A DNA stretch of 64,000 nucleotides from an uncultured Eubacteriales bacterium. GTDB lineage: Bacteria; Acidobacteriota; Aminicenantia; Aminicenantales; Saccharicenantaceae. Every line of letters starts with the position of its first letter. Position 1 is the first letter of the stretch. Under the pieces are notes generated by a model that was given only the letters and a program-made list of their open reading frames with translations, did no database searches and was not told the origin of the DNA. The position numbers and the translations under genes were made by a program. The stretch spans positions 9,575 to 73,574 of the forward strand of contig CAZFZU010000004.1 in NCBI GenBank assembly GCA_964523615.1. The letters run 5' to 3'. Of the stretch, positions 3,319 through 14,305 are shown piece by piece.

Positions 3319-3371
3319 AAAGGTCCGTTTTTCGAGGTCTGACACTCTACCGACGAAAGGCTCATAAGCCG

Positions 3372-3755
3372 TTGATCTTCGGGGCGGGCACGGACATCAT
3401 CGAGGTCCAGCGGGTCGAGGACAAGCTCGTCCGCACGGAGAGCCTCAAGTCGAAGCTCTTCACCCCGATCGAGATCGCCTACTGCGAATCCAAGCACCGC
3501 CCGGCCCAGCACTTCGCGGCCCGGTTCGCCGCCAAAGAGGCCTTCCTCAAGGCCATGGGCACGGGCTGGACGGGCGGCCACAAGTTCTCCGACATCGAGA
3601 TCGTCAACAACGCCCAAGGCAAGCCCACCCTCGTCGTCCACGGCAAGGTCAAGGAGTTCTGCGAGGCCCATGGCATCGGCGCCATGGAGGTCTCGCTGAC
3701 CCATATCAAGGACGTCGCCTCCGCCGTCGTCGTCCTCGAGAGGAAAGCCCCCTAA
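3372..3755 (+). CDS. acpS: Holo-[acyl-carrier-protein] synthase (4'-phosphopantetheinyl transferase)
   Basis: MIFGAGTDIIEVQRV start, FAAKEAFLKA motif and ~125 aa length typical of AcpS. TTG start. Confidence 0.85.
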   Translation: MIFGAGTDIIEVQRVEDKLVRTESLKSKLFTPIEIAYCESKHRPAQHFAARFAAKEAFLKAMGTGWTGGHKFSDIEIVNNAQGKPTLVVHGKVKEFCEAHGIGAMEVSLTHIKDVASAVVVLERKAP

Positions 3756-3780
3756 TCCCCCGAACGGAGTGAGAACGCCC

Positions 3781-5484
<1,704 letters not shown>

Positions 5485-5553
5485 CGGGGACAGGAAAAAA
5501 GGGGACATGTACCCGGTACGTGTCCCCGATCTCGTGAATAAAGGAGACCTCCG

Positions 5554-5811
5554 ATGGCCGAAGACCTCAAAGACATCGTCCTGAACTACGTCACCAAGGA
5601 GTACCTCGAGGACGACAGCGAGCCGCTGACCTACGACACGCCCCTCATCTCGGGCGGCATCGTCGACTCGTTCTCGATGGTCTCGCTCAAGCGCTTCCTG
5701 GAGAACAGGTACCAGATCGCCATCCCCGACGAGGACGCCTCGCCCGAGGCCTTCGACTCGGTCAACAAGATCGTCTCGCTCGTCGAGCGCTTCGTGGCCA
5801 AGAAGGGATAA
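5554..5811 (+). CDS. Stand-alone acyl/aminoacyl carrier protein (ACP/DltC-like)
   Basis: 85-aa acidic protein with a carrier-protein serine motif (LISGGIVDSFSMVSL). It sits between the ligase and the oxoamine synthase. Confidence 0.75.
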   Translation: MAEDLKDIVLNYVTKEYLEDDSEPLTYDTPLISGGIVDSFSMVSLKRFLENRYQIAIPDEDASPEAFDSVNKIVSLVERFVAKKG

Positions 5812-5815
5812 GGCC

Positions 5816-7063
5816 GTGGCCTACAGCGACAAGATCCGCGGCACCTACCAGGCCCAGATCAAGGGCATCCAGGAAGCGGGGCTGTTCAAGCAGGAGCGCT
5901 TCATCCACTCGCCCCAGGCGGCCGACATCGAGGTCGAGTTCCCGACCGGCTCGCCCCTCAAGAAGGTCATCAACATGTGCGCCAACAACTACCTCGGGCT
6001 GTCCAGCCACCCCGACGTGGTCAAGGCCGCGCACGAGGGCCTCGAGAGCCGGGGCTACGGCATGTCGTCGGTCCGCTTCATCTGCGGCACCCAGGACATC
6101 CACCGCGAGCTCGAACAGCGCCTGACCGAGTTCCTGGGCACCGAGGACACGCTCCTGTTCCCCTCCTGCATGGACGCCAACGCCGGCGTCTTCGAGGCCA
6201 TCCTGACCAAGGACGACGTCATCATCTCCGACCGTCTCGTCCACGCCTCGCTCGTCGACGGCATCCGCCTCTGCAGCGCCATGCACGACACCATCAAGCA
6301 CTCGGACATGGGCCACCTCGAGGAGAAGCTCCAGCTCCACGCCGACAAGCGCCTCAAGCTCGTCGTCACCGACGGCGTCTTCTCGATGGACGGCGACACG
6401 GCCAAGCTCGACGAGATGGCCGCCGTCTGCGAGAAGTACGACGCCATGGTCCTCGTCGACGACTCCCACGCCTCGGGCTTCATCGGCAAGACCGGCCGGG
6501 GCACGCACGAGAAGTGCGGCGTCGTCGGCCAGATGGACGTCATCACGACGACCTTCGGCAAGGCCCTCGGCGGGGCCTCCGGGGGCTGCGTCAGCGGCCG
6601 GCGCGAGCTCGTCGAGCTCTGCCGCCAGCGGGCCCGGCCGTACCTGTTCTCCAACACCATCGCCCCCGTCGTCGTGTCCGGCGTCCTCAAGGTCATGGAC
6701 ATCATCACCCGCTCGACCGAGCGCCGCGACAAGCTCGAGCGCAACGCCGCCTACTGGCGCAAGGGCCTGACCGAGGCCGGCTTCGTCCTCAAGGAAGGGG
6801 ACACGCCCATCGTCCCGGTCATGCTCTTCAACGCCAAGCTGGCCCAGGACGTCTCCCGGGCCCTCTACGACGAGGGCATCTACGCCATCGGCTTCTTCTT
6901 CCCCGTCGTGCCCCAGAGCCAGGCCCGCATCCGGACCCAGATCTCGGCCGGCCACGAGATCCACCACCTGGACAAGGCCCTCGAGGCCTTCATCAAGGTC
7001 GGCAAGAAGTTCGACATCCTCGGCAAGACGAAGCAGGACATCGTCGCCAAGTACGGGATGTAG
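5816..7063 (+). CDS. PLP-dependent alpha-oxoamine synthase, Kbl-like (2-amino-3-ketobutyrate CoA ligase / serine palmitoyltransferase family)
   Basis: By eye roughly half the residues match E. coli Kbl as I recall it: CANNYLGL, SVRFICGTQD, ISD..HAS..DG, DDSHA, PLP-lysine TFGKALGG, RPYLFSN, QARIRTQ. Confidence 0.9.
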   Translation: MAYSDKIRGTYQAQIKGIQEAGLFKQERFIHSPQAADIEVEFPTGSPLKKVINMCANNYLGLSSHPDVVKAAHEGLESRGYGMSSVRFICGTQDIHRELEQRLTEFLGTEDTLLFPSCMDANAGVFEAILTKDDVIISDRLVHASLVDGIRLCSAMHDTIKHSDMGHLEEKLQLHADKRLKLVVTDGVFSMDGDTAKLDEMAAVCEKYDAMVLVDDSHASGFIGKTGRGTHEKCGVVGQMDVITTTFGKALGGASGGCVSGRRELVELCRQRARPYLFSNTIAPVVVSGVLKVMDIITRSTERRDKLERNAAYWRKGLTEAGFVLKEGDTPIVPVMLFNAKLAQDVSRALYDEGIYAIGFFFPVVPQSQARIRTQISAGHEIHHLDKALEAFIKVGKKFDILGKTKQDIVAKYGM

Positions 7064-7080
7064 GATCGTTCGAAAAGCGT

Positions 7081-7119
7081 AAAAGGGGCCGTCCCGGCGC
7101 CGGGACGGCCCCTTTTTTT
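7081..7119. terminator. Bidirectional intrinsic terminator between convergent genes
   Basis: Perfect 13-bp GC stem (GGGGCCGTCCCGG / CCGGGACGGCCCC, 7085-7112), flanked by A4 on the left and T7 on the right. Confidence 0.75.
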
Positions 7120-7127
7120 GGCGTGGA

Positions 7128-9053
7128 TCAGGCGGCCGGGGCCTCTTGCGCCGCGGCCTTCTTGCGGGTCAGCAGGGACACGACGACGAGCGTCAGGAAG
7201 CTCAGCGGGATGGACACGATGCCCGGGTTCTTCAGGGGGAAGGGGGCCGTCAGCGGGTCCTTGCCGTAGAGCTCGAACATCGTCGGCGAGAACAGGATCA
7301 GGCCGATCGAGGAGAAGACCCCGACGAAGATCGAGGCCGTGATGCCCCGGGCCGTCGTCCCCTTCCAGAACAGCATCATGACGATCGACGGCAGGTTGGC
7401 CGAGGCGGCCACGGCGAAGGCCAGGCCGACCAGGAAGGTGACGTTGACGCCCTTGAAGATGATCCCCAGGACGATGGCCAGCGCGCCCACGGCGAAGGCC
7501 ACGATCTTGCCCGCGGCGACCTTCTGTTTCTCCGTCTTGATGACCTGTCCGAAGCGGTCGAGGAGGTCGTGGGCCACCGCGCCGGAGGCGGCGATGATCA
7601 GCCCGCTGACCGTGCCCAGCACGGTGGCGAAGGCGATGGCCGAGATCATCGAGAACAGGAAGGTCCCGAACGAGCGGGCCAGGAGCGGGGCCGACATGTT
7701 GTCGTCGAGGAGGTTGACGGTCCCGTTGGTCATCGCGCCCAGGCCCATGAACAGGGTCAGGATGTAGAAGAAGCCGATGGCGGCGATGGCCACGATGGTC
7801 GATTTCCGGGCCGCGGCCGGGCTGGGCACGGTGTAGTAGCGGATGAGGATGTGGGGCAGGGCGGCCGTGCCCAGGAACAGGGCCAGCATGAGCGACAGGA
7901 AGTCGATGCGGTCGGTCGCCGTGCCCTCGACCTTGAAGCGCTGGCCGGGGCGGAGGATCTTGTTCCCGGAGACCAGGACGGGATAGTAGACCGTGACCCG
8001 GCCGCCGTTGTCGTCGAACGAGGCGTTCTTCCAGAGCTTGACCTTGCTCCGGGCGTCGCCCATGAGCGACAGGAACCGGAAGGGGTTGAGCGGTCCGGTC
8101 GCCGCGCCGTCGCCGGTCTTGCCGGCGACGACCTCCATGTTGCCGACCGTGGCCAGCGTGTTCTCCTTCGAGGCCGGCGCGCCGTTGACGATCGGAGCGC
8201 CGTCGGCGAGACGGGCGACGAACTGGGACTCGATCAGGGCGACCGCGCCGGTCGCGGCGTCCTTCTCGGCCTTCCACCAGCTCTCCCGGCCGTCCTGGAG
8301 AAGCTTGACGAAGCGCAGGCCCTTGACCTCGCGGACGGCGGCGATCCGCCAGGCGGGGTCGTCGAGGGCGAGCGTGCCGCCCGTCTCGAGCGCGGCCAGG
8401 GCCCGGTACTGCCGGAACGGCACGCGGCCGCCCTGGTCGGGCTCGGTCGACAGCCCCCGGATGAGGACCACGGTCACCAAGACGAAGGAGAAGACGAGCA
8501 GCAGGGCGCCCTTGATGAACTGGACGTAGGTCGTCGAGGTCATGCCGGCGGTGGCCACGATGGTGATGACGATCAGGCCCACCAGGACGACCCCGACGGC
8601 GTGGGGCAGCCCGAGCAGCGGCGTGACCAGGACCCCCGCGCCGACCATCTGCGGGATGAGGTAGCAGATGGAGACGAGCAGGGTGCTGACGGCCGCCATC
8701 AACTTGATGCCGCGATGGTTGTAATTGGCGTCGAGGGCGTCGGTGAAGGTGTACTTGCCCAGCCGCTTGAGGGGCTCGGCGACGATGAACAGGGCCACGA
8801 TCCAGCCGGCCAGATAGCCGATGGAGTACAGGAAGCCGTCGTAGCCGGCCGTGGCGATCATGCCGCAGATGCCCAGGAAGGAGGCGGCCGACAGGTAGTC
8901 GCCGGCGAAGGCGATGCCGTTGACGCTCCAATGGATCCGGCCGCCGGCGGCGTAGTAGCCGCTGGCCGACTTGGCCCTCCCGGCGAAATAGAAGGAGATG
9001 GCCAGGACGAAGCCGACGAACAGGACGAACAGGACGATGGACAGGACGTTCAT
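7128..9053 (-). CDS. actP: Cation/acetate symporter ActP (SSS family) with an enlarged hydrophilic loop
   Basis: SSS/ActP motifs (YYAAGG, GDYLSAASFLG, GTAALPHILIRYYT). ATGA overlap with the upstream DUF485 gene, which is the canonical yjcH-actP arrangement. Confidence 0.9.
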   Translation of the reverse strand: MNVLSIVLFVLFVGFVLAISFYFAGRAKSASGYYAAGGRIHWSVNGIAFAGDYLSAASFLGICGMIATAGYDGFLYSIGYLAGWIVALFIVAEPLKRLGKYTFTDALDANYNHRGIKLMAAVSTLLVSICYLIPQMVGAGVLVTPLLGLPHAVGVVLVGLIVITIVATAGMTSTTYVQFIKGALLLVFSFVLVTVVLIRGLSTEPDQGGRVPFRQYRALAALETGGTLALDDPAWRIAAVREVKGLRFVKLLQDGRESWWKAEKDAATGAVALIESQFVARLADGAPIVNGAPASKENTLATVGNMEVVAGKTGDGAATGPLNPFRFLSLMGDARSKVKLWKNASFDDNGGRVTVYYPVLVSGNKILRPGQRFKVEGTATDRIDFLSLMLALFLGTAALPHILIRYYTVPSPAAARKSTIVAIAAIGFFYILTLFMGLGAMTNGTVNLLDDNMSAPLLARSFGTFLFSMISAIAFATVLGTVSGLIIAASGAVAHDLLDRFGQVIKTEKQKVAAGKIVAFAVGALAIVLGIIFKGVNVTFLVGLAFAVAASANLPSIVMMLFWKGTTARGITASIFVGVFSSIGLILFSPTMFELYGKDPLTAPFPLKNPGIVSIPLSFLTLVVVSLLTRKKAAAQEAPAA

Positions 9054-9343
9054 GTCCGCCCTCCCTGGGGCTCGGCCCGATGGAGGCGCTTCTCCATCCG
9101 GCCGCAGGCCCGGCTATAGATCAGGGCCAGGACCAGGGCGAAAACGATCAGGCCGAAGCCGTAGACGACGGCCAGGTTCAGGCCGCCGAACAGGACGGCC
9201 TCCATGGCTCCCGGCCGGACCAGGTTGACGACGACGAACCCGGCGTAGACGAGGGCGTAAAGGATGAACATCCCGGCGCCGAGGCGCCTCTTGTACTGGA
9301 AGGCGGGATCCGGTCCCGACTTCGCGGCTGGCTCGTGCAACAT
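9050..9343 (-). CDS. yjcH: DUF485 (YjcH-like) small inner-membrane protein
   Basis: 97 aa, two predicted TM helices, F.YKRR motif, translationally coupled to actP. Confidence 0.8.
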   Translation of the reverse strand: MLHEPAAKSGPDPAFQYKRRLGAGMFILYALVYAGFVVVNLVRPGAMEAVLFGGLNLAVVYGFGLIVFALVLALIYSRACGRMEKRLHRAEPQGGRT

Positions 9344-9423
9344 GGGTACGGGCCTCCTTGTTCTGCGTTAATGCCCGCTTTTATCTCACACTCTCCCCTG
9401 AAAATCAAGGTCTTTCCGGGCTA

Positions 9424-9453
9424 TTGACAGTCCTTCGCGCCGGGTGCTATGGT
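9424..9453 (+). promoter_or_regulatory. Candidate promoter TTGACA-N18-TATGGT for the sensor gene
   Basis: TTGACA at 9424-9429 and TATGGT at 9448-9453. Its position argues that translation starts at GTG 9486, preceded by GGGGAGGA, rather than at 9444. Confidence 0.35.
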
Positions 9454-9485
9454 GGGGCGGCCCCGGGGAGGGGAGGACGAGCCCC

Positions 9486-12400
9486 GTGACCGATCTCTTC
9501 CGCGTCAACCTGCACGGCCATTCCCTGTTCAGCGATGGGGAGCTGGCGCCGGCCGCCCTGGCCGAACGTTTCGCCGCGGCCGGGGTCCGGGCCGTCGCCC
9601 TGACCGACCACGACGCCGTGGACGGCCTGCCGGCTTTCCGGGAGGCGGCGCGGCGCCGGGGGATCGGGGTCATCTCGGGCGTCGAGCTGACCGTCGCCGA
9701 CCACGAGGCGGGCGAGAAGCACATCCTCGGCTACGGCTTCGATCCGGACCACCCCCCGCTGAAGGCCCTGCTGGCCCGGGCCTCCCAGGGCCCGGTCCCC
9801 CCGGCCGAGGCCATCCGGGCCCTCCACGACGCCGGCGGCCTGGCCGTCCTGGCCCATCCCGTGATGCCGGGGGAGAAGCCCGATCTCGCCGCCCTCGAGA
9901 CCCTGGTCGGACGGTACCGGGATTGGGGGCTGGACGGGCTCGAGGCCTTCTACGCCGGCTACTCCGAAGGATTGAGCCGGGACCTGGTCGCGCTGGCCTC
10001 CCGGCACGGCCTCGTCGTCAGCGCCGGGACCGATTTCCACGGCCAAGGGCTGCCGGGCTCGACCGAAACGGCCGCGGAGATGCCTCTCCCCCTCTGGCGC
10101 GAGTTTCGCGACGCCCTCCTCAGACGGAGCGCGGGCGCGGCCGCGGTGACGCTTCCCCCGGAGCCGCCCGGGCACCGCACGGTGCCGCGGCCGGGCCGGC
10201 GGGCCTTCCTGCTGCGCATCCTCCTGCCGACGGCCCTGGCCGTCGCCCTGTTCACCGTCTCCCTCTTCCGCGTCCTCATCCCGGCCTTCGAGCAGCGCCT
10301 CCTCGAGCGCAAGCGGGACACCATCCGCGAGCTGACCAACGTCGCCATGGGCATTCTGGCCGAATACGACTCCGACGTCCGGGACGGCCGGCTGACGCTG
10401 GCCGAGGCGCAACGGACGGCCGCCGAGCGCGTCCGCGACCTCCGCTACGGCAACGAGGGCAAGGACTATTTCTGGATCACCGACCTCGACGTTCGGATGA
10501 TCATGCATCCCTACCGGACGGACCTCAACGGCCGGGACGTCTCCGACTTCCAGGACCCCCGCGGCGTCCGCATCTTCGTCGAGTTCGCCAACATCCTCCG
10601 CGACCGGACGGACGCCTACGTCGAATACGTCTGGCAGTGGAAGGACGACCCGGACCGCCTCGAGCCGAAGCAATCCTACATCCAGAAGTTCGCCCCTTGG
10701 GGCTGGATCCTGGGCACCGGGCTGTACATCGAGGACGTGCAGGCCGAGATCCGGGCCATGGCCGGGCGGCTCGTCCGGATCTCCCTCGGCATCACCGTGC
10801 TCTGCGCCCTGCTCCTCCTGTTCGTGGCCGCCCAGAGCGCCCGCCTCGAGCGCCGGCGGGCCAAGGCCGAGGACGAGCTCCGCGAGTCCCACGAGAAGTA
10901 CCGGACGCTCGTCGAGTCGGCGACCGAGGGCACCCTGATGGTGCTCGAGGGCCGCCCGGCCTTCGCCAACCCGACCATGCTGGCGCTCCTCGACGTCCCC
11001 GAGAGCGGCCTGAGCCTGCTCGACCTCGACGAGATCCTGGCCGCGGACGCGGCCGTGCGGGTCCAGGAGCCGGCCGGCCTGAACGCCGAGGAGACCGTCC
11101 TCCGGCGCCGCGACGGGAGCGCCGTCGACGTCGTCCTGTCGTCGAGCCGCATCTCGTTCGCCGGGCGGGAGGGCCTGGTCCTCGTGGCCCGGCCGCTGCG
11201 CTCGGGGGAGCGCGGCCGGACCGCGTCGCGGCGGGACCGTGACCGGGAGGGCCTCATCGCCGACCTCCAGGCCTCGCTGATGTTCCTTCACGAGCCCGTC
11301 GGACCGCTGGCCGGCCCGCCCGTTTTCTGCGATATGCGGGACACCGCGGCCAAAGGGGCGGCGCTGATGACGGCCCGGGGGGCCAGCGCCGTCGTCGTCA
11401 CGGCCCAGAACGAGCCGGTCGGCTTGGTGACCGATTCCGACATCCGGGCCCGCCTCGTGGCCGAGGGCCGCGGCGGGGAGGTCCCGCTCCGGGAGATCAT
11501 GAGCGCCCCGCTCGTCTCGATCGAGGGCCAGGCCCTGGTCTACGAGGCCATCCTGGCCATGCGCGAGCGCGACGTCGACCACCTCCTCGTTCGCGACGAG
11601 AAGGGCGCCGTTTCGGGCCTCGTCCGCAACCGCGACCTCCTCCTCTTCCACCGCTACTCGCTGGCCGTCCTGACCCAGGAGATCCGGCACGCCGCCTCGC
11701 CGGAGGTCATCGCCGCCGCCCGCCGCGGCCTGCCGCGGCTGGTCAAGGTCCTGGTCGAGGGCGGGGCCAAGGCCCGCAACATCACCCGGGCCGTGACGGC
11801 CGTGACGGACGCCGCCGTCCACCGGCTCATCGAGCTGGCCGTGGCCGACCTGGGCCCCCCGCCGGCCAAGTTCGCCTTCCTGGCCCTGGGGAGCGAGGGC
11901 CGCGAGGAGCAGACCCTGGCCAGCGACCAGGACCACGCCATCGTCTTCGAGGACGTCCCCGGGGAGCGCGAAGAGGCCGTCCAGGCCTATTTCCTGGAGA
12001 TGGGGCGCCGCGTCTCGGACGGGCTGGCCCTGGCCGGATACCCCTTGTGTCTCGGCGGCATCATGGCCTCGAACCCGCGTTGGTGCCAGCCGCTCCGGAC
12101 CTGGCGCGGCTACTTCGCGGACTGGCTGCGGACGGCCGAGCCCGAGGACATCCTCGACCTCAAGATCTTCTTCGACTTCCGGGCCGTTCACGGCGACGCC
12201 GAATTCGCCGCGGCGCTCCGCCGGAGCGTCGACGAGGACCTGGCCCAGGAGCCGCCCTTCCTCCTCCACTACGCCCAGTACACGCTCCAGTACAAGGCCC
12301 CCCTGAGCTTCTTCGGCCACATCGTCCTCGAGGAGGGCAAGGAGGGGGCCAAGACCTTCAACATCAAGGACGCCCTGATGCCGGTCAACAACTTCGCCCG

Positions 12401-12698
12401 GCTGTACGCCTTCCGCCACGGCGTCGCCGAGGTCAACACGCTCGACCGGCTTCACGCCCTGCTCGAGATCGGGGCCCTGCGGGAGGGCCTCCACGACGAA
12501 GCGGTCAAGGTCTACGACTACCTCATGCAGCTGCGGCTGGCCCACCAGGTCAAAGCCATCGACCGGGACGAGAGCCCGGGGAACGACATCGACCCGCGTG
12601 GCCTGACCCACATCGAGGTTTCGCTCCTCAAGCAGGCCTTCGCCCAGATCGCCGATATCCAGAAGAAGATCAGCTACGACTTCCTGGGCTCGGCCTGA
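9486..12698 (+). CDS. Multidomain membrane sensor: PHP phosphoesterase - TM - sCache - TM - PAS - CBS pair - DUF294 nucleotidyltransferase - DUF294_C
   Basis: PHP motifs (NLHGHSLFSDG, LTDHD, GVE, LAHP, GTDFHG). Two hydrophobic helices flank a Cache-like block (KDYFWITD..MIMHPY..YVEYVWQW..GWILGTGLY). A PAS-like segment follows a coiled coil, then a CBS pair. NTase motif LALGSEGREEQTLASDQDHAIVF, then a C-terminal helical substrate-binding domain. Confidence 0.8.
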   Translation: MTDLFRVNLHGHSLFSDGELAPAALAERFAAAGVRAVALTDHDAVDGLPAFREAARRRGIGVISGVELTVADHEAGEKHILGYGFDPDHPPLKALLARASQGPVPPAEAIRALHDAGGLAVLAHPVMPGEKPDLAALETLVGRYRDWGLDGLEAFYAGYSEGLSRDLVALASRHGLVVSAGTDFHGQGLPGSTETAAEMPLPLWREFRDALLRRSAGAAAVTLPPEPPGHRTVPRPGRRAFLLRILLPTALAVALFTVSLFRVLIPAFEQRLLERKRDTIRELTNVAMGILAEYDSDVRDGRLTLAEAQRTAAERVRDLRYGNEGKDYFWITDLDVRMIMHPYRTDLNGRDVSDFQDPRGVRIFVEFANILRDRTDAYVEYVWQWKDDPDRLEPKQSYIQKFAPWGWILGTGLYIEDVQAEIRAMAGRLVRISLGITVLCALLLLFVAAQSARLERRRAKAEDELRESHEKYRTLVESATEGTLMVLEGRPAFANPTMLALLDVPESGLSLLDLDEILAADAAVRVQEPAGLNAEETVLRRRDGSAVDVVLSSSRISFAGREGLVLVARPLRSGERGRTASRRDRDREGLIADLQASLMFLHEPVGPLAGPPVFCDMRDTAAKGAALMTARGASAVVVTAQNEPVGLVTDSDIRARLVAEGRGGEVPLREIMSAPLVSIEGQALVYEAILAMRERDVDHLLVRDEKGAVSGLVRNRDLLLFHRYSLAVLTQEIRHAASPEVIAAARRGLPRLVKVLVEGGAKARNITRAVTAVTDAAVHRLIELAVADLGPPPAKFAFLALGSEGREEQTLASDQDHAIVFEDVPGEREEAVQAYFLEMGRRVSDGLALAGYPLCLGGIMASNPRWCQPLRTWRGYFADWLRTAEPEDILDLKIFFDFRAVHGDAEFAAALRRSVDEDLAQEPPFLLHYAQYTLQYKAPLSFFGHIVLEEGKEGAKTFNIKDALMPVNNFARLYAFRHGVAEVNTLDRLHALLEIGALREGLHDEAVKVYDYLMQLRLAHQVKAIDRDESPGNDIDPRGLTHIEVSLLKQAFAQIADIQKKISYDFLGSA

Positions 12699-12706
12699 GC
12701 CCCGCC

Positions 12707-14305
12707 TCAGCGGAACAGGGAGGCGGCCTTCCCGACCGTCTGCAGGATGCCCCACCCGAGGGGGATGCCGACGAGCGCCCAGGCCGCGGCCACCTCGACC
12801 CACGAGCCCCGGCTCGCCCGCCAGCCCGACGCCGGGACGGGGGCGTCCGCCTTGGCCGCCTCGAGGGCCCCCTTGGCGTGGCCGAGGGCCCGCTCCCGGG
12901 CCAGGTCCTCGTCGGACATGAAGTGCTTGGCGGCGACGGGGCGGACCAGGAGATTGGCCAGGAAGCCGAGCAGGAGCAGCCCGGCCAGGATGTACAGGGT
13001 CGTGTTATAGGCCGATTCGTTGGGGACGCCGCGCTTGAGCTGGAACTCGCGGATGTAGTTGACCAGGACAGGGCCCAGGATGCCGGCCGTCGACCAGGCG
13101 GTCAGGAGGCGGCCGTGGATGGCCCCGACGAATTGGGTGCCGAAGAGGTCCGCCAGGTAGGCCGGGATGGTGGCGAAGCCGCCGCCGTACATGGTCAGGA
13201 TGAGGCAGAACAGGGCCACGAACAGGGCCACGCTCTTGGTGTCGCCGGCGAACGGGGCGGCGGCGTAGAGGACCGCGCCCAGGGCGAAGAAGATGACGTA
13301 GGTCCGTTTGCGGCCGATGTAGTCGGACAGGGAAGCCCAGAAGAACCGCCCGGCGATGTTGAACAGGCTCAGGAGGCCGGCGAAGCCGGCCCCGATGGTC
13401 GCCGTCAGGGCCTTCTCCTCGATCGACAGCTCGGTGAAGGCCTTGGCCAGCCCGATGAGCCGGCCGCCGAAGACCTCCTGGAGCATGGGCGAGGCCATGC
13501 CGATGATGCCGATGCCGGCGCTGACGTTCAGGCACAGGACGGCCCAGAGCAGCCAGAACTGGGGGATCTTGTGGACGGCGTCGATGTGGACGTGGCCGTG
13601 GGTGATCATGCCGTCGGCCTTCTTGGCCGGCGGGGCCCAGCCGGGCGGCGCCCAGCCCGCGGGCGGGATGCGGTAGAGGAAGGCCCCGGCCAGCATGGCC
13701 GCGAAGTAGATGGCCCCCATGGTCAGGAAGGTCTCCTTGACCCCGACCGAGGTCGAGGTCGCGTAGAGCTTGATGAGCCGGTCGGCCAGGGGGGCGCCGA
13801 TCATGGCCCCGCCGCCGAAGCCCATGATGGCCATGCCCGTGGCCATGCCGCGCTTGTCGGGGAACCACTTGATGAGCGTCGACACCGGCGAGATGTAGCC
13901 GAGGCCGAGCCCGCAGCCGCCGATGACCCCCGAGCCGATCCAGAGCAGGGCGATCTGGTGGAGGTGGACGCCCAGGGCCGAGATGAAGAAGCCGCCGCCC
14001 CAGCAGAACGCGGCCGCGACGCCCGCCTTGCGCGGCCCGTTGCGCTCGAGCCAGCGGCCGAAAACGGCGGCCGAGCCGCCGAGGAAGACGAAGAACAGGG
14101 TGTACATCCAGCCGAGCGTGCTGATCTTCCAATCGCCCGGGACGGGCCCGGTCACGCCGAGGGCCCGGCTGAGGGGGAGCCAGAAGACGCTGAAGCCGTA
14201 GGCCATGCCGATCGAGAGATGGATGGCCAGGGCCGCCGGCGGTACGAGCCAGCGGTTGAACCCCGGCTTGGCGATGGTCCGTTCCTTGTCGAGAAGACCG
14301 CTCAT
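12707..14305 (-). CDS. MFS transporter, oxalate/formate antiporter (OFA)-like, with a C-terminal extension
   Basis: OFA-type N-terminus (NRWLVPPAALAIHLSIGMAYGFSVFWLPL) and about 12 TM helices. An extra ~80 aa tail ends in one more hydrophobic helix. Confidence 0.8.
   Translation of the reverse strand: MSGLLDKERTIAKPGFNRWLVPPAALAIHLSIGMAYGFSVFWLPLSRALGVTGPVPGDWKISTLGWMYTLFFVFLGGSAAVFGRWLERNGPRKAGVAAAFCWGGGFFISALGVHLHQIALLWIGSGVIGGCGLGLGYISPVSTLIKWFPDKRGMATGMAIMGFGGGAMIGAPLADRLIKLYATSTSVGVKETFLTMGAIYFAAMLAGAFLYRIPPAGWAPPGWAPPAKKADGMITHGHVHIDAVHKIPQFWLLWAVLCLNVSAGIGIIGMASPMLQEVFGGRLIGLAKAFTELSIEEKALTATIGAGFAGLLSLFNIAGRFFWASLSDYIGRKRTYVIFFALGAVLYAAAPFAGDTKSVALFVALFCLILTMYGGGFATIPAYLADLFGTQFVGAIHGRLLTAWSTAGILGPVLVNYIREFQLKRGVPNESAYNTTLYILAGLLLLGFLANLLVRPVAAKHFMSDEDLARERALGHAKGALEAAKADAPVPASGWRASRGSWVEVAAAWALVGIPLGWGILQTVGKAASLFR

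Follow-up and report, generated by a model that had tools for sequence, protein, structure and literature searches.

Genes of the DUF294/COG2905 family adjoin the main uptake systems for acetate, lactate and propionate. In Shewanella amazonensis and Pseudomonas stutzeri, SSF/DUF4212 transporters for lactate and D-alanine were reported to cofit with a nearby 'COG2905 (RNase T domain protein)' (10.1101/072470), and propionate induces the Pseudomonas genes PA3232-PA3235 together, about 16-fold (PMC9765439). The C-terminal domain of the family, DUF294_C, has earlier been grouped with the C-terminal domains of GlnD and GlnE (PMC3710099). In the literature we found no paper that characterises DUF294 or gives it an activity, and queries by that name mostly returned DUF2946. 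Here, we describe a DUF294 protein encoded in a stretch of 64,000 nucleotides (nt) from an uncultured Eubacteriales bacterium of the GTDB lineage Aminicenantales (assembly GCA_964523615.1, contig CAZFZU010000004.1, positions 9,575 to 73,574 of the forward strand), which is called the window throughout. A sequence-only reading of this window had proposed that a PHP phosphoesterase is fused to a Cache/PAS/CBS-DUF294 nucleotidyltransferase divergent from yjcH-actP, that both enzymes act on a common nucleotide or RNA-like substrate and that the module reads out external carboxylates.

The gene encodes a real, single transmembrane receptor of 1070 residues, which represents a new architecture within the already catalogued DUF294/COG2905 family. 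The PHP fusion, together with the mutually exclusive metallophosphoesterase or DnaQ partners found in relatives, shows the nucleotidyltransferase to be teamed with an enzyme that cleaves phosphodiesters. We tentatively read the protein as a GlnD-like writer/eraser receptor that reversibly nucleotidylylates a protein controlling monocarboxylate uptake, an interpretation to which we give somewhat less than an even chance.

Architecture of the receptor

Within the GC-rich window (about 62-73%), the listing of open reading frames (ORFs) contains one uninterrupted ORF at 9444..12698 (+). The likeliest start is the in-frame GTG at 9486, which lies 3' of the ribosome-binding stretch GGGGAGGGGAGG. In a protein search, homologues of 1070-1120 residues span 100% of the receptor from residue 1 onward, and because of this the PHP region is placed in the same protein as the remaining domains. 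A start 3' of the PHP region, or a separate PHP gene, is ruled out by the continuous ORF and by these homologues. The gene is organised as follows:

9424..9453 (+): sigma-70-type promoter-like site of the receptor gene (consensus scan; TTGACA-18 nt-TG-TATGGT)
9486..12698 (+): complete reading frame of the receptor (PHP-Cache-PAS-CBS-DUF294), including the stop codon (ORF and full-length homologues)
9498..10130 (+): PHP phosphoesterase domain of the TrpH/RNase AM type without insertion domain, cytoplasmic, residues ~5-215 (Pfam match over residues 9-80, E=2.8e-12; NCBIfam, AlphaFold2, Foldseek)
10200..10292 (+): transmembrane segment 1, residues 239-269 (hydropathy scan)
10305..10760 (+): sCache_2 domain, extracytoplasmic, with a predicted C2/C3-carboxylate pocket, residues 274-425 (Pfam, E=4e-37; alignment)
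10755..10850 (+): transmembrane segment 2, residues 424-455 (hydropathy scan)
10878..11210 (+): PAS-like region, cytoplasmic, residues ~465-575 (weak PAS_8 match over residues 470-518, E=0.008, below cutoff; homologues)
11298..11651 (+): CBS pair directly upstream of the nucleotidyltransferase, residues ~605-722 (Pfam, PF00571 in two stretches, E=1.5e-13)
11730..12146 (+): DUF294 pol-beta-type nucleotidyltransferase core with G802-X11-D814-X-D816, residues 749-887 (PF03445, E=1.2e-48; alignment, AlphaFold2/Foldseek)
12255..12683 (+): DUF294_C helical substrate-binding domain, residues 924-1066 (PF10335, E=1.1e-36; AlphaFold2/Foldseek)

The Pfam matches to PHP, sCache_2, the two CBS stretches, DUF294 and DUF294_C each exceed the curated cutoffs, and homologues show PAS, PAS_9 and PAS_8 matches over the PAS-like region. 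Pfam revealed no cNMP-binding domain in the receptor; the PHP domain, sCache_2 with its flanking transmembrane segments and the PAS-like region stand in that place. The two hydrophobic segments have cytoplasmic flanks rich in Arg, which places the PHP domain and the PAS-CBS-nucleotidyltransferase part in the cytoplasm and the Cache domain outside the membrane, between both segments. Upstream of the gene, both promoter-like hexamers are unchanged in 6 related loci, and blocks resembling the divergent yjcH promoter are also invariant in the same six, so that the conserved intergenic blocks resemble two divergent promoters.

The fusion proposed by the sequence-only reading is thereby borne out by the single ORF, the Pfam matches and the conserved full-length homologues. 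Its domain borders stand to within about 30 nt, apart from the PHP domain, which reaches ~10130, and DUF294, which begins at ~11730. Position 9424, taken there as the start of the feature, is the -35 hexamer of the promoter-like site, and the coding sequence starts at 9486. The same reading had considered that the PHP metal site might be degenerate or that the true start might lie downstream; the nine metal ligands turned out invariant, and the downstream start is excluded by the homologues covering residue 1 onward.

Conservation was followed in an alignment of 20 family members having 46-95% identity to the window protein. Here, the ligands of the trinuclear metal site of PHP (H10, H12, D17, H42, E67, H79, H124, D183 and H185) never vary, and a degenerate site is thus ruled out. 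In the nucleotidyltransferase, G802, S803, D814, D816 and the third acidic residue D897, which sits just past the DUF294 core, are invariant as well. On the level of sequence, the catalytic residues of both enzymes are all intact.

For the Cache domain, MctS and CtpM are the nearest NCBIfam models, and the best solved relatives are Adeh_3718, which was crystallised with acetate, and PscD (40-45% identity over the domain). In PscD, propionate is contacted by Y90, W92, H103, F126, Y143, W145 and K156, and all seven residues are identical in McpP and Adeh_3718 (PMC5062169). The window protein carries the identical set, Y328, W330, H341, F364, Y381, W383 and K395 (7/7), which is invariant in the family. 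A C2/C3 monocarboxylate is thus strongly predicted as the ligand, and the conserved pocket backs the proposed readout of external carboxylates.

The PHP domain is most closely related, by sequence as well as by predicted fold, to RNase AM, BAD_1165 and Cv1693. The nearest NCBIfam models are the 3',5'-nucleoside bisphosphate phosphatase and RNase RNM (RNase AM), whose curated family cutoffs are missed (NF041577, 115 bits vs 400; NF047791, 93 bits vs 375). The AlphaFold2 (AF2) model has a predicted local distance difference test score (pLDDT) of 94.9, and its best Foldseek matches are 7ug9, 3e0f and 2yb1. The metal ligands of the receptor correspond to the set listed for RNase AM, which comprises H13, D20, H45, E72, H83, H198, D255 and H257 (PMC9410882). 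The alignment jumps over residues ~107-176 (or ~106-161) of RNase AM and ~118-175 of Cv1693, meaning that the insertion domain is absent from the receptor. In RNase AM/Cv1693, Arg107, Arg110, Arg141 and Phe161 of this insertion domain bury the 5'-phosphate and stack the base of the substrate (PMC9410882). Furthermore, Arg201 of RNase AM is replaced in the receptor (AHPVM vs AHPGR), and other members of the 20-member alignment have a variable, poorly conserved insert of ~40 residues where the insertion domain would be. As judged from the alignment, the receptor PHP keeps the hydrolytic machinery and lacks the substrate clamp of the enzymes acting on adenosine 3',5'-bisphosphate (pAp) and 5'-phosphorylated (5'-P) RNA. 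Since the insertion domain and Arg201 are absent, it is unlikely to retain the specificity for pAp or 5'-P-RNA. In the AF2 model, ~17 poorly ordered residues connect PHP to the first transmembrane segment, and the domain looks membrane-tethered rather than rigidly coupled to the sensor.

Partner phosphoesterases and carboxylate transporters

A scan of the GTDB species genomes returned at least 583 Cache-type relatives, and the class and neighbour counts given here refer to the best 80 of these. The fused PHP domain is present in 45 of the 80, from roughly ten phyla, including Aminicenantes, Holophagaceae, Anaerolineae/Chloroflexota, Spirochaetota, Planctomycetota, Latescibacterota, Verrucomicrobiota, Armatimonadota and Hydrogenedentota among others. 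The remaining 35 begin at the first transmembrane segment, without PHP. Among species representatives, the closest matches come from an uncultured bacterium (80% identity) and from Candidatus Aminicenantes (72-74%). In the protein search, more than 120 clusters display the full Pfam set including PHP, down to 43% identity; where they are named at all, they appear as 'cache domain-containing protein' or 'DUF294 nucleotidyltransferase-like domain-containing protein'.

Loci without PHP have, directly beside the receptor gene and in the same direction, a gene for a protein of 210-257 residues, which lies downstream in Acidobacteriota, Verrucomicrobiota, Planctomycetota and Oligoflexia, and upstream in Bacteroidota. 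Of these partners, 19 were tested, and each proved to be a calcineurin-like metallophosphoesterase; none of the catalytic motifs varies. By tblastn, 26 of the 35 PHP-less loci showed a metallophosphoesterase (24 strong matches directly adjacent and co-directional, two weak ones after ActP), as against 0 of the 45 PHP-fused loci, while PHP matches were confined to the fused class among the 80 loci. The fused PHP and the separate metallophosphoesterase are mutually exclusive.

One further PHP-less locus, from Desulfobacter latus (L034; related loci are numbered with L), has an RNase_T-type exonuclease domain nearby instead of the metallophosphoesterase. This is the C-terminal RNase_T-like domain of a membrane protein of 681 residues, encoded 1.9 kb upstream. 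The locus (4040-13087) contains two convergent Cache-DUF294 paralogues, one of which has an N-terminal cytoplasmic extension of ~150 residues with no Pfam match. In the window itself, the Pfam-scanned flanking genes (1-30039) include no RNase_T-like gene. In the PHP-less loci L027, L048, L064 and L066, the neighbours examined for a partner have unrelated or no Pfam matches.

The cNMP-type members show a third arrangement. In P. aeruginosa (L083), the order is DUF485, acetate symporter, cNMP/CBS-DUF294 and 3'-5' exonuclease, the last two genes overlapping by 4 nt. In Vibrio pelagius (L081), the exonuclease follows DUF294 after a gap of 2 nt, and in Paracoccus denitrificans (L082), acs, DUF4212, SSF and DUF294 are followed by a 3'-5' exonuclease two genes further. 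The RNase_T domain was confirmed in all three partners, which are directly adjacent in two of the three loci. The Paracoccus exonuclease has a long N-terminal part without an assigned domain.

Thus, three unrelated metal-dependent folds that cleave phosphodiesters (PHP, metallophosphoesterase and RNase_T) fill the same partner position. The partner type is clade-specific in a crude neighbour-joining tree of the nucleotidyltransferase domains, which is too crude for counting displacement events. The Pseudomonas and Vibrio context described in the sequence-only reading (cNMP-CBS-DUF294 with a DnaQ-like exonuclease and a symporter) was recovered on the annotated records, Paracoccus likewise having an RNase_T partner, and the link between nucleotidyltransferase and phosphoesterase became stronger than proposed there, owing to the separate metallophosphoesterase where PHP is absent.

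These data bear on whether the fusion is meaningful at all. TrpH-type PHP proteins are common as stand-alone housekeeping enzymes, and the PHP domain might be such an enzyme (a pAp phosphatase or RNase AM), attached to the receptor without any functional tie to the nucleotidyltransferase. We regard such a fortuitous fusion as scarcely credible, given that it is kept down to ~43% identity in about ten phyla, that the insertion domain required for the housekeeping substrates is absent and that PHP and the adjoining metallophosphoesterase exclude each other. A role in anti-phage defence was considered as well and dropped, as the receptor and the metallophosphoesterase partner gave no PADLOC match, and none to models of cyclic-oligonucleotide-based anti-phage signalling systems (CBASS).

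The second constant of these loci is the transporter. In the window, the receptor gene is flanked by:

7131-9053 (-): ActP/MctC-type cation/monocarboxylate SSF symporter (profile matches)
9053-9343 (-): small DUF485 membrane protein resembling YjcH, its gene divergent from that of the receptor (profile match)
12710-14305 (-): OFA/SfMCT-like L-lactate-type MFS transporter, convergent with the receptor gene (profile match)

These profile matches confirm the proposed neighbours, yjcH-actP on the divergent side and an OFA transporter on the other. With the window proteins as tblastn queries, strong ActP/YjcH matches were found beside 36 of the 45 PHP-fused genes, and most of the remainder are truncated contigs. 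Among loci with at least 3 kb on both flanks, an SSF symporter adjoins 26 of 27 PHP-fused genes (24 of the ActP type with YjcH, two of the VC_2705 type) and 17 of 24 PHP-less genes (ActP type or VC_2705 type), and the linkage to ActP/YjcH noted in the sequence-only reading therefore holds across phyla. The relative orientation of receptor and transporter genes differs between groups: they point away from each other in Aminicenantes, towards each other in Spirochaetota and Anaerolineae, and in the same direction in Chloroflexota, Planctomycetota and Verrucomicrobiota; therefore, the linkage outlasts rearrangement. In two loci, a SatP-type (GPR1/FUN34/YaaH) acetate channel beside Cache-DUF294 genes replaces the symporter (L051, 5048-11234; L037, 5547-7109), in L051 between two paralogous receptor genes. 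The SatP-type channel is a third transporter family tied to the module.

A recurrent set of genes accompanies the Cache-DUF294 gene in nine loci of Bacteroidota and relatives (L036, L039, L042, L048, L063, L064, L067, L069 and L074). It encodes a protein of 250-275 residues ending in DUF4212, a VC_2705-type SSF, a TPR-like membrane protein of 255 residues, a porin-like protein of 420 residues and the metallophosphoesterase. Clustering of all flanking ORFs revealed no other widely shared neighbour besides the transporters.

Some peculiarities of the neighbouring genes were observed in addition. The ActP-like symporter of the window has 641 residues, and the ActP/MctC models match ~1-198 and 362-637, which implies an insert of ~160 residues. 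In three loci from metagenome-assembled genomes (L003, 7389-7517; L006, 5640-7568; L076, 6020-7852), the ActP homologue appears in several tblastn pieces or as a short fragment, which could be due to frameshifts, pseudogenes or assembly errors. The convergent MFS transporter reaches 313 bits against a cutoff of 320 for its best model, the L-lactate transporter SfMCT, carries a fused 'MFS transporter small subunit' tail (residues 503-531) and is kept in position in the closest relatives only (L002-L004 and L006). Beyond ActP, four co-directional genes at 3321-7063 (+) encode a 4'-phosphopantetheinyl transferase, an AMP-binding ligase, a product of 85 residues and a class I/II aminotransferase. 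The 85-residue product has the size of an acyl carrier protein and no Pfam match, and the aminotransferase is KBL/serine-palmitoyltransferase-like, so that the set looks like one for the biosynthesis of long-chain bases or sphingolipid-type compounds. An aminotransferase of this type also adjoins ActP in L002.

Proposed output of the receptor

A sequence-profile search of the PDB sequences with the nucleotidyltransferase returned no solved relative, the best matches being designed repeat proteins (E=0.13), and the GlnE model of NCBIfam matches the receptor weakly (E=4.8e-5, 21.6 bits vs a cutoff of 625). An AF2 model of residues 725-1070, comprising the nucleotidyltransferase and the C-terminal domain (pLDDT 92, predicted template modelling score 0.90), was therefore compared with the PDB by Foldseek, and the top 50 matches were inspected. 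Just four have E<1e-3: the AMPylation domain of DrrA (6yx5_B; template modelling score (TM) 0.66, E=8e-9), the N-terminal domain of GlnE (1v4a; TM 0.70, E=6e-8) and two chains of its C-terminal domain (3k7d; TM 0.65, E=3e-7 to 5e-7). Aminoglycoside nucleotidyltransferases follow with TM about 0.3, and terminal uridylyltransferases (TUTases) and poly(A) polymerases with TM <0.2, both at E>1e-3. Structures of cGAS, OAS or CD-NTases are not among the top 50. The spacing G-X11-D-X-D is that of GlnE and DrrA, and the motif G802-X11-D814-X-D816 of the receptor fits it.

From these matches, the modelled fold narrows the likely chemistry to the transfer of a nucleoside monophosphate (NMP) onto a protein (NMPylation), and the predicted Cache pocket points to the likely class of ligand. 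Because the fold matches only DrrA and GlnE and the PHP domain has no insertion domain, the substrate shared by nucleotidyltransferase and PHP is more likely a nucleotidylylated protein than a nucleotide or RNA. Of the common nucleotide or RNA-like substrate suggested by the sequence-only reading, the partner logic stands, and the shared substrate would probably be of another nature.

The sequence-only reading named a signal that is made and broken as an example of such an action. Synthase and hydrolase on one polypeptide are common in second-messenger signalling, and among DEDD exonucleases and metallophosphoesterases there are nanoRNases and cyclic-nucleotide phosphodiesterases. DUF294 could thus make a nucleotide or a short, possibly cyclic, oligonucleotide in response to external carboxylate, which PHP, metallophosphoesterase or DnaQ then degrades. 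The pattern of partner displacement fits this equally well, and the nearest structural relatives of PHP, RNase AM and Cv1693, are hydrolases of pAp and of short 5'-P oligonucleotides. Nevertheless, we consider a messenger unlikely: the fold matches GlnE/DrrA, with no messenger synthase among the top 50 matches, the PHP domain is without the clamp for the 5'-phosphate of nucleotides, the loci hold no conserved effector or receptor gene apart from the transporters, and no defence or CBASS model is matched.

The second tier of fold matches raises another possibility, namely that a metabolite is adenylylated as by aminoglycoside or lincosamide nucleotidyltransferases and is recycled by the phosphoesterase. 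The aminoglycoside enzymes have a KNTase_C-type helical domain (PMC3710099). However, at TM about 0.3 and E>1e-3 these matches are distant, and the loci offer no biosynthetic or resistance context, their constant neighbours being carboxylate transporters. Nucleotidylylation of a small molecule is therefore very improbable.

Reversible nucleotidylylation of a protein would work as follows. An external C2/C3 monocarboxylate (acetate, propionate, pyruvate, glycolate or lactate) would bind to sCache_2, and the signal would pass via the second transmembrane segment to the PAS-like region, the CBS pair and the GlnE/DrrA-type nucleotidyltransferase. The CBS pair probably reads adenine nucleotides, as its G-h-h-T-x-x-D motif (GLVTDSD) suggests. 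The nucleotidyltransferase would then put an NMP on a hydroxyl of the target protein. The PHP domain, tethered by its flexible linker of ~17 residues, would be the opposing metal-dependent phosphodiesterase that hydrolyses the protein-O-P-O5'-nucleoside diester and removes the NMP, following the logic of GlnD with its nucleotidyltransferase and HD hydrolase. The switch would control the uptake of small carboxylates via the adjoining ActP/YjcH and, in relatives, via the VC_2705-type SSF with DUF4212 or the SatP-type channel. The target would be the transporter or its small subunit, which are the sole conserved candidates. This would explain why the partner folds are interchangeable, since all three can release 5'-NMP from an O-linked leaving group, and why the receptor PHP can do without the insertion that clamps the nucleotide in RNase AM. 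The protein as substrate, PHP as eraser and the transporter or its small subunit as target are what we infer from these data.

Several points weigh against this interpretation. The literature holds no biochemistry for any DUF294 protein, and when YjcH homologues were aligned, no cytoplasmic residue with a hydroxyl (Tyr/Ser/Thr) stood out as clearly conserved. The fold match was obtained with a predicted model and reaches TM 0.65-0.70 at 12-15% identity. In 8 of the 35 PHP-less loci, two of them on short contigs, no partner phosphoesterase was found within the flanks. The characterised kin of two partner types (RNase AM/Cv1693 and RNase_T) act on RNA or oligonucleotides, and none of them is a known protein de-NMPylase. 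Furthermore, Price et al. speculate that the symporter depends for its expression on the COG2905 protein, the RNase T-domain partner (10.1101/072470), and a structured RNA candidate before many related transporter operons fits an RNA-level mechanism (PMC6429828). This candidate, the TIGR03647 riboswitch motif, comprises 770 examples, always upstream of DUF4212-SSF operons (PMC6429828), and may be linked to the DUF294/exonuclease pair.

The last three points speak for control on the level of RNA, where the nucleotidyltransferase would tail the 3' end of the transporter mRNA or of a small RNA (sRNA) and the partner nuclease would trim it, thereby setting symporter expression. Two of the three partner families, the RNase AM-type PHP and RNase_T, are indeed ribonuclease families. 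The searches for RNA elements argue in the other direction. In seven related loci that were scanned (L025, L027, L039, L048, L061, L071 and L082), the TIGR03647 motif stayed below the Rfam gathering score and no Rfam family came up at threshold, nor did one near yjcH-actP in the window, and the 5' region of yjcH conserves promoter-like blocks only. The similarity of the fold to TUTases and poly(A) polymerases is far below that to GlnE and DrrA (TM <0.2 vs 0.65-0.70), RNase AM works 5' to 3' and DnaQ 3' to 5', which makes them not obviously interchangeable on an RNA end, and a membrane anchor is unusual for RNA tailing. Control by RNA tailing thus appears quite improbable. Just past the actP stop, at 7072-7137 (-), sub-threshold Rfam matches to sX6 (E=0.0096) and ftsZ-DE (E=0.014) were observed; instead of an sRNA, this site may represent a hairpin of the terminator type.

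Beyond the single protein, it is conceivable, though rather doubtful, that a whole class of receptors uses reversible protein nucleotidylylation as its output instead of phosphorylation, methylation or a second messenger. In such a class, a writer and an interchangeable eraser (PHP, metallophosphoesterase or DnaQ), encoded on one polypeptide or in one operon, would gate monocarboxylate transporters post-translationally according to external substrate and internal energy state. If true, this would be a new output type for bacterial transmembrane signalling and a circuit for carbon resembling that of AmtB, GlnK and GlnD. It would also add a layer of post-translational control to the uptake of short-chain fatty acids, with a bearing on gut, sediment and pathogen physiology. 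The family is widespread; cNMP-type members from Pseudomonas, Vibrio, Shewanella and Paracoccus add to the Cache-type relatives counted above, and the PHP fusion serves as a natural Rosetta stone for the partner logic of all DUF294 proteins.

Comparison with known systems

The TrpH/YciV-type enzymes RNase AM and Cv1693 resemble the receptor PHP in their distorted barrel and in the complete set of nine ligands at the trinuclear site, and they are its best matches in sequence and fold. Unlike the receptor PHP, they possess an insertion domain of ~70 residues with the nucleotide clamp as well as Arg201. They are soluble proteins of ~290 residues, whereas the receptor PHP is fused to a membrane receptor.

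The sCache_2 sensors of C2/C3 carboxylates, PscD, McpP and Adeh_3718, have all seven ligand-contacting residues in common with the receptor. The output of such sensors is the signalling domain of a methyl-accepting chemotaxis protein or a histidine kinase as in MctS, in contrast to the nucleotidyltransferase/phosphoesterase of the receptor.

DrrA/SidM, the AMPylase of Legionella, is the best structural match to the nucleotidyltransferase and the helical domain. Here too, the writer DrrA and its metal-dependent eraser SidD are genetically linked. However, DrrA is an effector secreted to modify Rab1 of the host, the fold of SidD is PP2C-like, and neither has sensor domains or a transporter context.

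In GlnD and GlnE, as predicted for the receptor, one polypeptide unites metabolite sensors, a removal activity and the opposing pol-beta nucleotidyltransferase, which comes with a helical domain of the KNTase_C type. GlnE represents the closest predicted fold and has the G-X11-D-X-D motif in common with the receptor, and in the GlnD-GlnK-AmtB system the end output is the control of a transporter. The eraser is an HD domain in GlnD and a second nucleotidyltransferase domain in GlnE, whereas the putative eraser of the receptor is PHP; in place of ACT, the receptor has Cache, PAS and CBS as its sensors, and it is in addition membrane-bound. Unlike GlnD and GlnE, the receptor locus has no PII or glutamine synthetase context, and the sequence similarity to GlnE is marginal.

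The nearest relatives are the COG2905/DUF294 proteins themselves, for example PA3233/PA3232 of P. aeruginosa, which have the CBS pair, DUF294 and DUF294_C in common with the receptor. Proteobacterial members and plasmid-borne ones of Cytobacillus display 26-34% identity over the nucleotidyltransferase part (31-34% in one alignment), and they share the linkage to DUF485-ActP or DUF4212-SSF genes and a phosphoesterase partner. Their input is a cytoplasmic cNMP-binding domain and their partner a separate RNase_T exonuclease, whereas the receptor is membrane-anchored, has the extracytoplasmic sCache_2 domain with PAS as its input and carries its partner as a fused PHP domain.

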